A DNA stretch of 64,000 nucleotides, taken from a virus (taxonomy: Duplodnaviria > Caudoviricetes). The notes beneath the pieces were generated by a model. That model did not search any database. It was not told the origin of the DNA and was given only the letters and a program-made list of their open reading frames with translations. The position numbers and the translations under genes were made by a program. The first letter of the stretch is position 1, and each line of letters opens with the position of its first letter. The stretch covers positions 29,036 to 93,035 of the IMG/VR virus record IMGVR_UViG_3300032269_000703; one strand, 5' to 3'. Of the stretch, positions 4,211 to 63,598 are shown in pieces.

Positions 4211-4371
4211 TGGCTACTAAAAAAGTTTGGGAAAAACCAGATCCTACTAAAAAAGACAAGCCTCTAAGCAAAAAGCAAAAATCATCGGCTAAAGCTCGTG
4301 CCAAAGCTGCTGGTCGTCCATACCCTAACCTAGTAGATAACATGGCGGCTTCTAGAAAGAAAAAGAAGTAA
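4210..4371 (+). CDS. Small basic phage protein (AKARAKAAGRPYPNLVDNM family), 53 aa
   Basis: Not in ORF track; MATKKVWEKPDPTKKDKPLSKKQKSSAKARAKAAGRPYPNLVDNMAASRKKKK; TAATG coupling at both ends. Confidence 0.8.
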   Translation: MATKKVWEKPDPTKKDKPLSKKQKSSAKARAKAAGRPYPNLVDNMAASRKKKK

Positions 4372-4727
4372 TGGATGAACAAAATCTAAACGATCAGCAG
4401 TTTGGTCCTTGGAAAATGACTCCTACCATGAAGGCTGTTCATGAGTATATGAAAACTAGACATGTTGGTGTAGAAAACAGAGGCGGTATGTGGGACATTG
4501 CAGCAGCTACTGTTACAAACCATAAAAAACAGTATTTAACTAATGCTAAACATGAAGCCCACTTTGAGGCATTAAATCGTCTAATTGATAATGGAATTGT
4601 AAAAAAGAACTCTGGAGACTACCATAATGGAGATGATATCGATACTGCGTGGATTCCTGTAGAAGGTGAAAAAACTGTAAAAGAACTGTACATGGAAGAA
4701 CTTGAACATAAATTTGGCAGTCAGTAA
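4371..4727 (+). CDS. Hypothetical protein, possibly winged-helix
   Basis: WDIAAA...EALNRLIDNGIVKK pattern; N-terminal NLNDQQF motif. Confidence 0.6.
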   Translation: MDEQNLNDQQFGPWKMTPTMKAVHEYMKTRHVGVENRGGMWDIAAATVTNHKKQYLTNAKHEAHFEALNRLIDNGIVKKNSGDYHNGDDIDTAWIPVEGEKTVKELYMEELEHKFGSQ

Positions 4728-5137
4728 TGGGTAGAAATACTGCAGCATTTCAAGGTGGTCAAGGACTATCTATTGTTCATGATAAAGGACAAAAAGTATC
4801 TTTACACAAAGTTGGAGAAGGTGAGGTATCTAGTATAGATTACCATTTACCAGAACCAAATAGGGTATACATTTCTATGATGAATACTCCATGGGAGTAT
4901 GAAGGTAATGGGTATTCTTCTTACCTAGTAAACCATCTGTATAACTATTACCCAAACCACACAATAGATTTTGGCGATATTGTCCACCCAGCGGCAGAAC
5001 ACATTATGGAAAAGATGATGTCACAACATGGCAGAACAGTATACAGCACTTCGTCTAAAGACTGGACTTGCAAAGAGTGCGGAGAAGAAAATTTTTCTAG
5101 AGATATGTTACGTGAGCATGAAGAAGAGAATCACTAA
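4727..5137 (+). CDS. GNAT-like acetyltransferase with C-terminal C2H2 Zn finger
   Basis: ISMMNTPWEYEGNGYSSYLV (motif A variant); CKEC-x12-HEEENH. Confidence 0.65.
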   Translation: MGRNTAAFQGGQGLSIVHDKGQKVSLHKVGEGEVSSIDYHLPEPNRVYISMMNTPWEYEGNGYSSYLVNHLYNYYPNHTIDFGDIVHPAAEHIMEKMMSQHGRTVYSTSSKDWTCKECGEENFSRDMLREHEEENH

Positions 5138-5496
5138 TGGGTAGAAATAATGCAGACTTCCATGGTTACACTCTAGAGTTTGAGCACGCTGATACTTCTC
5201 CTGTAGAAGACTGTGATCACCACAGAGTAGATGCTTTTGATAAAGATGATGAGCATGTAGGCAGTTTAATATGGTTCACGCATGACGCGGGCGCGCGTAC
5301 CCCAGGCGCAATAGACGTAGATGTAGACCCTGAACACCAGCGTAAAGGTATAGCTACTGCTATGTACAAGTTTGCTTTACAAAAAGCTGCTGAACATAAC
5401 ATTATTAAGCCAGATCTACTTAGGTCTTCGTATGGACCTGAAGGGTATAGATGGGCTAGATCTTTAGGATTACCTAAGAAGTTTGGTGAAAGATAG
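5137..5496 (+). CDS. GNAT acetyltransferase
   Basis: VDVDPEHQRKGIATAMY (Q/RxxGxA acetyl-CoA motif). Confidence 0.8.
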   Translation: MGRNNADFHGYTLEFEHADTSPVEDCDHHRVDAFDKDDEHVGSLIWFTHDAGARTPGAIDVDVDPEHQRKGIATAMYKFALQKAAEHNIIKPDLLRSSYGPEGYRWARSLGLPKKFGER

Positions 5497-5505
5497 CATA
5501 ATCTG

Positions 5506-5514
5506 TGCTATAAT
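5506..5514 (+). promoter_or_regulatory. Extended -10 promoter (TGcTATAAT) for hsp20
   Basis: Exact TGnTATAAT in intergenic gap about 7 nt before a 5' hairpin. Confidence 0.65.
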
Positions 5515-5521
5515 CTATGTA

Positions 5522-5610
5522 GGCACGCCAATTGGGTGCCATAAACAATAGTCTGCCTTATGGGGACTTTGCCGTATGGCAGACGCTTATCTACGTCTAA
5601 GGAGTAGAAA
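5522..5610 (+). promoter_or_regulatory. Structured 5' leader of hsp20 (possible RNA thermometer or switch)
   Basis: GGCAC/GTGCC hairpin; GTCTGCC/GGCAGAC long hairpin; alternative AGACG/CGTCT versus TCTAC/GTAGA stems around the AAGGAG SD. Confidence 0.55.
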
Positions 5611-6132
5611 ATGCACATTAACGTACCAGATCCATGGGATAAACACAAAAACCCATATATTAACCCACATGATCCGTGGGATAAGAAAAAAGAGTGGGAA
5701 AAACCTGCTCCACCAAAGATTATTACAATTAATGATCTATTTCCTCGTTTAGACCGCCTTTCTATTGGTTGGTCTCCACTTCTTGATCAACTCAAGGAGA
5801 TTACTAACAACAAGCCAAGTTACCCTCCATATGACATTGTTCAGATGGATGAAGAGACAAACCTACTCAACGTAGCTGTTGCTGGGTTTACTAAGAAGGA
5901 AGTTACTGTTACTGTAAAAGATTCAGCAATTACCATCGAAGGTAAGCAGAAAGAAAAGCAACGTGGCGAAGTTGTTTACCAGGGCATTGCTACACGGGAC
6001 TTTAAGTTGTCGCTAGCAATTGCTGAATACTGGGAAGTTACTAATGCTCTAATGGAAAACGGTATGTTGACTATTCAATTCAACAAGATCCTTCCTGAAG
6101 AGCTGAAGCCAAAGGTAATTGACATTAACTAG
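5611..6132 (+). CDS. Small heat-shock protein Hsp20/IbpA family
   Basis: SYPPYDIV, VAVAGF, YQGIATRDF, A.MENGMLTI motifs; AAGGAG SD. Confidence 0.93.
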   Translation: MHINVPDPWDKHKNPYINPHDPWDKKKEWEKPAPPKIITINDLFPRLDRLSIGWSPLLDQLKEITNNKPSYPPYDIVQMDEETNLLNVAVAGFTKKEVTVTVKDSAITIEGKQKEKQRGEVVYQGIATRDFKLSLAIAEYWEVTNALMENGMLTIQFNKILPEELKPKVIDIN

Positions 6133-6147
6133 TTTTTAATGTAGACT
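6119..6147 (+). promoter_or_regulatory. Sigma70/SigA-type promoter for the ncRNA cassette
   Basis: TTGACA (6119-6124) - 17 nt - TAGACT (6142-6147); predicted start about 6154. Confidence 0.75.
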
Positions 6148-6154
6148 AGGTATA

Positions 6155-6184
6155 CCACCTGAGCACGTGGACGTAAAACTGCTC
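6155..6184 (+). ncRNA. H-type pseudoknot at 5' end of ncRNA cassette
   Basis: S1 CCAC 6155-58/GTGG 6167-70; S2 GAGCA 6161-65/TGCTC 6180-84; A-rich loop ACGTAAAAC. Confidence 0.6.
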
Positions 6185-6187
6185 TTA

Positions 6188-6267
6188 GGGCTAGAAATGG
6201 TGTCGATTGCAGAACAAAGCCGCATGTCGGAGTCTGTAAGACCGCAGTTCAATTCTGCGCTGGTCCA
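6188..6267 (+). ncRNA. ssrA: Minimal tmRNA: tRNA-like domain only, no mRNA-like domain
   Basis: Acceptor GGGCTAG/CTGGTCC with G3:U pair and discriminator A; stemless D-loop ending GTCGA; P2 TTGCAGA/TCTGTAA; GAC linker; T-arm CGCAG-TTCAATT-CTGCG; CCA not encoded. Confidence 0.8.
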
Positions 6268-6272
6268 CGCTT

Positions 6273-6324
6273 GTAGACAAAGGAGCGTTTTAGCGGTCTA
6301 CCCGTCCTAGGCAACGGAATCTCC
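6273..6324 (+). ncRNA. Nested pseudoknot-like RNA between the two tRNA-like elements
   Basis: GTAGAC/GTCTAC, GGAG/CTCC, CGT/GCG, CCGT/ACGG pairings. Confidence 0.4.
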
Positions 6325-6326
6325 AA

Positions 6327-6397
6327 GGACTGGCGTAGCCATGGGCTACGAGTCGATTCGGTAGGTAGTAGTCGGTAGTGCAAATCTACACAGTCCA
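6327..6397 (+). ncRNA. Non-canonical tRNA-like cloverleaf
   Basis: Acceptor GGACTG/CAGTCC+A; CGTAGCC/GGCTACG stem; CGATT/AGTCG stem with 11-nt loop; T-arm GTAG-TGCAAAT-CTAC. Confidence 0.55.
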
Positions 6398-6413
6398 CGC
6401 ATGGAAGGAAAAT

Positions 6414-6587
6414 ATGCCAACGTATCAATACACGTGTAAAGAGTGTGACTCTACAATTAGTCACCTCATACCTATTAATGAACCATTAATAACTCCTAAA
6501 TGCCTGTCCTGTCAACAGGAAATGGAAAGGATATTTGCCGTTCCTAGTATTACATTTCGTGGTGGTGGTTGGGGCAGTAGCCGTTGA
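6414..6587 (+). CDS. FmdB-family zinc-ribbon protein
   Basis: MPTYQYTCKEC...CLSC..MERIF..P.ITFRGGGW; GGAAGG SD. Confidence 0.88.
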   Translation: MPTYQYTCKECDSTISHLIPINEPLITPKCLSCQQEMERIFAVPSITFRGGGWGSSR

Positions 6588-7027
6588 AGACATGCACTTT
6601 ATGCGGTATTGAGAAATCTTACGATCAATACACTAAAAAAAGCCGTAATAGGGATGGGTACATGGCTATGTGCCGTGAATGCTCTCTACCTAGGCGTCGT
6701 AAACAATATGAAGAAAATCCGGACTATCAAAGGAACGCAGTGAAGGTTCGTAAAGAAAATAATCGTGATCGCATAACACAGTACAAGATAGATAACCCTT
6801 GTGCTGATTGTGGTAAATTTTATCCTTCTTATGTGATGGATCTAGATCACGTACGTGGAGATAAGTTTAAAGGAGTATCTCAGCTAGTTTCACATAGCTG
6901 GGACGTAATAGAAACAGAAATTGCTAAGTGTGACTTAGTATGCGCTAATTGCCATCGTGAACGTACTTTTAAACGTTTAGGCACAACACAACTCGACTAC
7001 TACCATGAGGACTACCAACTTGATTAA
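6584..7027 (+). CDS. HNH endonuclease
   Basis: N-terminal CTLC/CREC; PCADCG..MDLDH..KCDLVCANCHRERT. Confidence 0.85.
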   Translation: MKTCTLCGIEKSYDQYTKKSRNRDGYMAMCRECSLPRRRKQYEENPDYQRNAVKVRKENNRDRITQYKIDNPCADCGKFYPSYVMDLDHVRGDKFKGVSQLVSHSWDVIETEIAKCDLVCANCHRERTFKRLGTTQLDYYHEDYQLD

Positions 7028-63236: not shown

Positions 63237-63598
63237 TGGATGGTTATTTAGAACCAACTCATCGTCTAGACTGGATGGATAAAGCTAGGTGTAAAGATAA
63301 AGATCCTACAACAGAGATTTTTTTTCCTCCTAGAGACAAAGCCAAGTACTCTAAACTAGCTACACAAGCTAAAGCAATGTGCTTAGGACCTAATAACACA
63401 AGTCCTTGCCCAGTTCGTAAAGAATGTCTGTGGTTTGCTGTAGAATCAGATGAGCAGCATGGTATTTGGGGTGGCATGAGCCACCGTGAACGCAATGCTT
63501 TAGTCAGGAAATGGCAACGTAAGTTCAAGGATCAGATGACCTTGAAGGAATATATATTTCAAATAGATAAGAAGGAATACAATAATGGCAGTAAGTAA
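63236..63598 (+). CDS. whiB: WhiB-family transcription factor
   Basis: W...A.C, FFP, AKAMC..CPVRKECL, GIWGG.S..ER. Confidence 0.93.
   Translation: MDGYLEPTHRLDWMDKARCKDKDPTTEIFFPPRDKAKYSKLATQAKAMCLGPNNTSPCPVRKECLWFAVESDEQHGIWGGMSHRERNALVRKWQRKFKDQMTLKEYIFQIDKKEYNNGSK

Follow-up and report, generated by a model that had tools for sequence, protein, structure and literature searches.

A lone tmRNA-type tRNA-like domain encoded by a myovirus belongs to a large, covarying family of phage RNAs

We analysed a 64,000-nt stretch of phage DNA (the window; bases 29036–93035 of a 93,035-bp IMG/VR virus record) and found at positions 6188–6267 (+) an 80-nt gene with the fold of the tRNA-like domain (TLD) of tmRNA. 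Judged from its sequence and those of its relatives, this mini-tmRNA is a conserved structured RNA gene with the architecture and signature of the tmRNA TLD, and is part of a large phage family. We consider it probable (about 0.6) that it is a TLD-only tmRNA gene of the type found in phage DS6A, whose product would be charged with alanine, bind SmpB and block or divert trans-translation in the host; this function, which we infer, has published precedent.

The gene lies in a 281-nt gap, with hsp20 (5611–6132) on one side and a small zinc-ribbon ORF (6414–6587) on the other. Its parts, all on the plus strand, follow the order acceptor 5′ strand, stemless D region, helix P2a, apical module, GAC linker, T arm, acceptor 3′ strand and discriminator. 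The acceptor stem has 7 bp, GGGCTAG (6188–6194) pairing with CTGGTCC (6260–6266), including G3:U70 and U5:G68 wobbles. The D-loop analogue AAATGGTGTCGA (6195–6206; as RNA AAAUGGUGUCGA) has no stem; the family consensus of this region is a-a-AUGGU-nUCGA, and the RF00023 consensus, aligned to relatives, is GAucuGGaUUCGAC. P2a is a 7-bp helix of TTGCAGA (6207–6213) and TCTGTAA (6233–6239), all seven pairs of which covary, and together with the apical module that it encloses spans 6207–6239. The GAC linker (6240–6242), with no variable loop, leads into the T arm (6243–6259; stem CGCAG/CTGCG, loop TTCAATT), where four of the five stem pairs covary and the family loop is UUCRAUU. Discriminator A (6267) is followed by a 3′ trailer CGC (6268–6270) rather than an encoded CCA. 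A first-pass annotation, made from the sequence alone, had placed the acceptor with its G3:U wobble, the stemless D region, the 7-bp helix, GAC, the T arm and discriminator A exactly here, and had correctly stated that CCA is not encoded. It had also described a 19-nt loop in place of the pseudoknots and tag ORF. Indeed, only 33 nt separate the D region from the GAC linker, and the window element has no mRNA-like domain, resume codon, tag reading frame or pseudoknots; the 'loop', however, is a conserved internal loop (ACAAAG/AG) closed by a 3-bp hairpin, CCG-CATGT-CGG.

The minimum free energy structure given by RNAfold for the window element is the TLD fold (−25 kcal/mol). The single-sequence z-score is only −1.33, so that thermodynamics by itself is not significant and the support comes from comparison instead. 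We built a covariance model, R1, from the window element and four near relatives only, ran three IUPAC pattern scans of viral contigs, and then built a second model, R2; the window element scores 115 and 106 bits on R1 and R2, respectively. R2 gave 80 full-length matches at E<1e-7 in viral contigs, representing 63 distinct sequences of ~80 nt with a GC content of 0.45–0.70. The weakest members counted have 38 bits on R2 and most have at least 45; ordinary tRNAs and full-length tmRNAs at the same loci reach at most about 33 bits, full-length tmRNAs scoring 21–30. Two contigs that matched the first scan pattern (L030 and L032) were discarded as chance matches, as R1 found nothing in them at E≤1 and they have no T arm or acceptor strand.

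Among eight diverse homologs, 99.4% of the cells at paired positions are paired and 14 of 22 pairs are doubly changed, and none of 500 shuffles did as well. For the 63 distinct homologs the paired fraction was 99.1%, against 68% in shuffles, and the covariation score 0.786, against 0.176 in shuffles and at most 0.114 in slid controls. Covariation thus backs the structure, and on this comparative basis the TLD fold at 6188–6267 is confirmed; the annotation's proposal that homologs downstream of hsp20 should be collected and should covary is borne out, both by the four near relatives and by the wider family (8 and 63 sequences). The 3′-anchored scan pattern forced CGG, AC, GTTCRATTC and TCCAC, and the 5′-anchored patterns forced AATGGT, GTCGA and AAANCC. 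As the patterns fix parts of each half, invariance is partly forced, notably in the 3′ half, and each half was therefore checked where it was unforced; the conservation of each half persists in the scan set in which that half was left free.

The top of the acceptor stem does not vary at all. G1:C72, G2:C71 and G3:U70 are present in 64 of 64 distinct members (distinctness here including a 3-nt tail), while pairs 4–6 vary with compensation among four or five pair types. The invariance of these three pairs beside covarying neighbours argues that alanine charging, and not just folding, is under selection. CCA is encoded in only 14 of the 64.

Standard tools do not see the window copy. ARAGORN called no tRNA or tmRNA, either in the window or in the whole 93-kb genome, and Rfam at gathering thresholds gave no match in the window. 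At E≤10, RF00023 (bacterial tmRNA), RF00005 (tRNA) and RF02544 (jakobid mitochondrial tmRNA) all failed to match the element; the sole RF00023 match in the whole genome was an unrelated 15-nt stretch. By blastn against a phage collection, the element gave only short T-arm matches to tRNAs. As a tRNA the mini-tmRNA would lack a D stem and a 7-nt anticodon loop, and ARAGORN makes no call on it even with relaxed settings, as long as these stay short of noise. At such a setting (-ps80) ARAGORN produced 59 noise calls, among them a 'permuted tmRNA' at about 6174–6703 of the window with the tag VEDMHFMRY, which we rejected as it overruns coding ORFs. In the E-value mode of Rfam, a 7.8-bit beta_tmRNA alignment (E 3.3) hinted at a two-piece RNA with a second GGGCTAC at 6343; this reading is out, since the relative L005 keeps a complete TLD yet lacks 6268–6392 entirely.

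The window copy, unseen by RF00023 and ARAGORN, is thus linked to tmRNA transitively, through DS6A and through the higher-GC members of the family. DS6A is listed as 'Mycobacterium phage DS6A (TLD only)' by Hudson, Lau and Williams 2014 (PMC4131195), so that the precedent which the first-pass annotation named is real; its TLD-only tmRNA is tmID 11587 of the tmRNA Website. R1 has one match in the 61.6 kb of DS6A searched (L025:28475–28557, 54.2 bits, E 6e-16), and this is the published TLD-only site; RF00023 finds the same site (L025:28478–28560, 43.2 bits), skipping 312 model positions. Viral members of ~80 nt score higher still on RF00023, whose gathering threshold is 47 bits: L087 has 70.0, L077 and L068 65.7, L093 62.7, L065 57.8 and L062 51.2, and several bacterial copies have 49–69. 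The threshold is passed by the higher-GC branch (51–70 bits) and not by the low-GC branch nearest the window; passing members align to positions 1–374 of the model with about 306 positions skipped. Running Rfam tmRNA models and ARAGORN, which the annotation had proposed as a check, therefore failed on the window element itself, whose score stays below the threshold that homologs found with our own model reach, but succeeded, for RF00023, on DS6A and on these members. The identification as a tmRNA TLD without mRNA-like domain, similar to that of DS6A, accordingly stands.

The DS6A RNA and the window RNA share a length of about 80 nt, the order of elements, G3:U70, a 7-bp P2a, an xAC linker, a D region of the form AAUGGU(G)GUCGA, the T loop UUCRAUU and a discriminator A followed by C. 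The apical module is also shared (AAAA-CCG-CACG-CGG in DS6A, AAAG-CCG-CAUGU-CGG in the window). In contrast, the sequences of all three main stems differ by compensatory changes, the GC content is 0.67 in DS6A and 0.51 in the window RNA, and the 3′ trailers are CUA and CGC, respectively. On RF00023 the DS6A RNA falls just short of the threshold (43 bits), and the window RNA has no match at all. The phages differ too: DS6A, with a genome of 60 kb, is temperate and has an integrase, while the window phage is a 93-kb myovirus with terminal repeats in which no integrase was found. With the TLD of bacterial tmRNA (RF00023) the window RNA has in common the acceptor with G3:U70, the stemless D loop with GG and UCGA, P2a, GAC ahead of a 5-bp T stem, the 7-nt T loop, the lack of a variable loop and discriminator A; it differs in having no pseudoknots, resume codon or tag frame, and is too diverged for RF00023.

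The apical module is conserved across the family. The form AAA-n-CCG-loop-CGG-A is kept also in members where the search pattern left it free, the hairpin sequence is conserved family-wide, and the innermost hairpin pair covaries (G:C, U:A, A:U). In E. coli ssrA we found AAAC-CC just after P2a, and GCAUGCCGAGG; the segment GCATGCCGAG, which the first-pass annotation had described as preceding PK1, is indeed present just before PK1 (L172). Four actinobacterial full-length tmRNAs inspected have no clear counterpart of the module. We draw no conclusion from these comparisons, and the module, strongly conserved as it is, has no role in our preferred model. Its conservation is one of the points in favour of an SmpB-independent, tRNA-like RNA, which might act as a decoy for a host nuclease or sensor directed at tRNA or tmRNA, donate alanine to a non-ribosomal transferase, or bind a factor that recognizes the apical module: the module equals the TLD core in conservation, has no obvious equivalent in actinobacterial full-length tmRNAs, and may be a separate binding site. 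In addition, members of the family often lie beside tRNA and RNA ligase genes, a setting associated with the damage and repair of tRNA. We nevertheless regard this reading as improbable. The RNA has no anticodon loop for anticodon nucleases to act on, the signature of the D region and linker is specifically that of tmRNA (its SmpB-binding surface) and not of tRNA, and we saw no protein gene conserved next to the element from one context to another.

The surroundings of the gene were compared among close relatives. The Hsp20 gene (Pfam HSP20 5e-15, PHROG Hsp20 4e-33) has relatives encoded in 18 viral contigs, four of which have the element. Across the window and these four near relatives the 80 nt are invariant save for five changes (in L003 and L005), all of them in the apical module, and two of the five are a compensatory pair that turns CCG..CGG into CCU..AGG; the flanks of the element diverge. 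L005 has no counterpart of window positions 6268–6392, which makes the mini-tmRNA a self-contained module. In remoter Hsp20 phages, ordinary tRNAs occupy the slot after hsp20.

These data bear on the possibility that the phage carries a leftover piece of host ssrA as an attP, or that the element is a functionless tRNA or tmRNA pseudogene in decay. ssrA is a frequent site of phage integration, its 3′ end being carried by the phage (mentioned in PMC9004378), and the ordinary tRNAs in the slot of the relatives could be taken in the same direction. However, the TLD has its 5′ half as well as its 3′ half, joined by a conserved hairpin; the 80 nt are nearly invariant among close relatives with diverging flanks; covariation extends family-wide, and the element recurs in unrelated contexts. 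The 93-kb genome has direct terminal repeats and no match to a tyrosine integrase (PF00589), and in DS6A, which has an integrase gene, the element is about 10 kb from it. The attP that the first-pass annotation had itself raised as a caveat thus fails on the complete 5′ half and on the integrase, and we consider a remnant of either kind highly improbable.

Upstream of the element there is a sigma-70-type promoter-like site, TTGACA-17 nt-TAGACT (6119–6147, +; 10 of 12 matches), with its −35 hexamer inside the last hsp20 codons. The hsp20-linked relatives keep the −10 hexamer TAnACT between variable flanks; the −35 is also under coding constraint, which confounds its conservation. Between this site and G1 lies a 5′ leader (6150–6187) containing a hairpin (6162–6184, +; core GAGCA/TGCTC), the position of which is kept in relatives with a different sequence, for example CCTGGG...CCCAGG. 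Presumably the leader hairpin is lost when RNase P cuts at G1. No terminator was predicted, the leader hairpin itself having no T-run, and the mini-tmRNA is therefore probably cut out of a longer transcript.

Beside the mini-tmRNA, and not part of it, is a second non-canonical tRNA-like RNA, TLS2 (6327–6397, +). In its cloverleaf-like fold the acceptor stem has 6 bp (GGACUG/CAGUCC), a 7-bp hairpin takes the D position, and an 11-nt loop caps a 5-bp stem; the T arm reads GUAG-UGCAAAU-CUAC, and CGC comes after discriminator A. Neither ARAGORN nor Rfam calls TLS2. It has homologs with compensatory changes in L004, L066 and L041 and is absent from L005; in L002 and L003 its slot, downstream of the mini-tmRNA, holds a genuine tRNA-Trp(CCA). 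By eye, the alignment shows that the tRNA-Trp of the sister contig L002 has the same CGC trailer as the mini-tmRNA. A direct repeat, GTCCACGC, at window positions 6264–6271 and 6393–6400, flanks the 125-bp segment missing from L005, which suggests that recombination between the two tRNA-like genes, whose 3′ ends are alike, adds or removes the downstream RNA modules. Further out, a GNAT acetyltransferase ORF (5137–5496, +) lies upstream of hsp20 in a run of short same-strand ORFs, and an HNH/endonuclease VII-like ORF (6584–7027, +) lies two genes downstream of the RNA cassette.

The phage genome (41% GC, direct terminal repeats) has a myovirus gene set that includes tail sheath, baseplate wedge, portal, large terminase, major head protein and DNA polymerase. 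Its capsid protein is ~60% identical to those of Streptomyces phages BRock, LuckySocke and relatives. WhiB is a marker of actinobacteria and their phages, and the genome has a gene of the WhiB family at about 63272–63502 (+) of the window (record 92307–92537; 70.6 bits), from which we infer a likely actinobacterial host. Given the 41% GC, the host could, at a guess, be a low-GC freshwater actinobacterium. We found no match to SmpB, an RF-1 domain or a CCA-adding enzyme in the 93-kb genome, so that the RNA would need host factors.

The cultured phages LuckySocke and BRock each have one member of the family (59 and 54 bits, respectively), in both cases in an unannotated gap of a tRNA array, at OR725497.1:17974–18054 (+; L148) and KX925554.1:97143–97223 (−; L149). 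RNA ligase and thioredoxin genes are close to both. WhiB is encoded by 21 of the 39 viral records that bear the family, against 1 of 11 records with the same pattern and no strong match. A tRNA on the same strand lies within 500 nt at 26 of the 80 viral loci, only 4 nt downstream in L028; the presence of members inside phage tRNA arrays makes tRNA-type processing plausible. In L065, sub-threshold YrlA (Y RNA-like) matches (2042–2169, +; 38–40 bits, threshold 69) lie between tRNAs, about 140 nt upstream of the mini-tmRNA of that contig.

Scanning a genome collection with a family-specific pattern revealed 12 further members of ~80 nt (R2 49–82 bits); 9 of the 22 bacterial pattern matches were ordinary full-length tmRNAs and were set aside. 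The actinobacterial copies are from Pseudonocardia (two), Streptomyces, Actinomadura and MAGs of Acidimicrobiales, Actinomycetes and Actinomycetota; the others are from three Saccharibacteria/Patescibacteria MAGs, a Fluviibacter MAG and a Poriferisphaera chromosome. Each of the five mini-tmRNA-bearing bacterial genomes tested also has a normal full-length tmRNA. The mini form is thus an additional gene there, and probably a phage-borne one. In a contig of Streptomyces sp. NPDC056835 (L165), the copy at 5551–5632 is embedded in an array of more than 20 tRNA genes (4220–6175), which is probably a prophage or a co-assembled phage.

DS6A is the only phage TLD-only example named in the literature that we searched. 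The 2025 tmRNA database paper repeats DS6A and adds plastid and jakobid mitochondrial forms that have no tag coding sequence; one step of its search pipeline rejects truncated hits (PMC11915505). In these CDS-less organellar tmRNAs (RF02544 in jakobid mitochondria; about 65 bp in Mallomonadaceae plastids; PMC11915505) the TLD is likewise kept and the tag coding region lost. They replace the full form, however, whereas the phage mini-tmRNA is added to the host's normal tmRNA, and the two kinds are likely of independent origin. Phages can also carry ssrA at full length, often near tRNAs, as in Bxz1-like mycobacteriophages, Bacillus phage G, Melnitz and pelagiphages (PMC4131195, PMC9004378); those genes keep the tag frame and are found by ARAGORN, while the mini-tmRNA has no tag frame and is missed. 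The novelty is therefore lower than the first-pass annotation had claimed: a TLD-only kind is already known from DS6A, and the window RNA is a further member of it. How large the family is, that standard annotation overlooks it and that its apical module is conserved all appear to be undescribed in the literature searched.

According to summaries of Mao et al. 2009, a molecule similar to that of DS6A strongly inhibited tmRNA in E. coli, whether or not it could be charged (PMC4131195, PMC11915505), perhaps by titrating SmpB (PMC4131195). In our preferred reading, that of an inhibitory DS6A-type RNA, the window gene would be transcribed early in infection from the sigma-70-like promoter at 6119–6147, and the transcript would be cut by RNase P at G1, trimmed and given its CCA by host enzymes. 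G3:U70 would then let AlaRS attach alanine to the mini-tmRNA, which host SmpB, as well as EF-Tu, would bind. Having no resume codon or tag frame, it would compete with host tmRNA for SmpB and stalled ribosomes, and SsrA tagging with the degradation linked to it would be suppressed during infection. Since a non-chargeable TLD was also inhibitory in the cited work, the invariant G3:U70 is not accounted for in this scheme, and pure titration of SmpB may be an incomplete description. The invariance suggests that charging matters, which would favour an action on the ribosome, as a competitor or in tag-less rescue, over simple SmpB titration.

It is also possible that the RNA rescues ribosomes without tagging. 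Alanyl-mini-tmRNA with SmpB would enter the stalled ribosome and take over the nascent chain, and host factors would release or hydrolyse the peptidyl-RNA, freeing ribosomes for phage translation and leaving proteins unmarked; a comparable proposal exists for the jakobid mitochondrial and plastid tmRNAs without a tag CDS. The charging implied by invariant G3:U70 and discriminator A fits an action on the ribosome better than an SmpB sponge, organelles retain CDS-less tmRNAs together with SmpB (PMC11915505), and the gene lies in an early host-takeover region of a lytic-looking phage. On the other hand, the genome encodes no release route of its own, an RF-1/ArfB-type domain not being found in it, and the only experimental report cited, as summarised by later authors, describes inhibition and not rescue. 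Every upstream step is shared with the inhibitory reading, and sequence cannot separate the two. We regard tag-less rescue as the less probable of the two.

Almost all bacteria have trans-translation, which is also a drug target. If the inhibitory or the tag-less reading is true, a compact natural RNA that shuts down trans-translation or bypasses tagging would be a strategy of phage takeover and a research tool. The family has been missed by ARAGORN, and its low-GC branch also by Rfam. With at least 63 distinct viral variants, most of them from WhiB-encoding actinophages, and further copies in Saccharibacteria, Planctomycetota and Betaproteobacteria assemblies, we tentatively suggest, at less than even confidence, that mini-tmRNAs are no peculiarity of DS6A but a class of phage RNA that is widespread and has gone unrecognised. 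On this reading the invariant alanine identity pair and the conserved apical module, the latter not obvious in the full tmRNAs inspected, would both be under selection and hint at a separate mechanism, in which an alanylated RNA may act on the stalled ribosome, or on a factor bound by the apical module, and not as a passive SmpB sponge. The family raises the questions of why G3:U70 is invariant if titration of SmpB is enough, and of what the apical hairpin binds. The members in cultured Streptomyces phages BRock and LuckySocke, which have laboratory strains as hosts, make the function directly testable.
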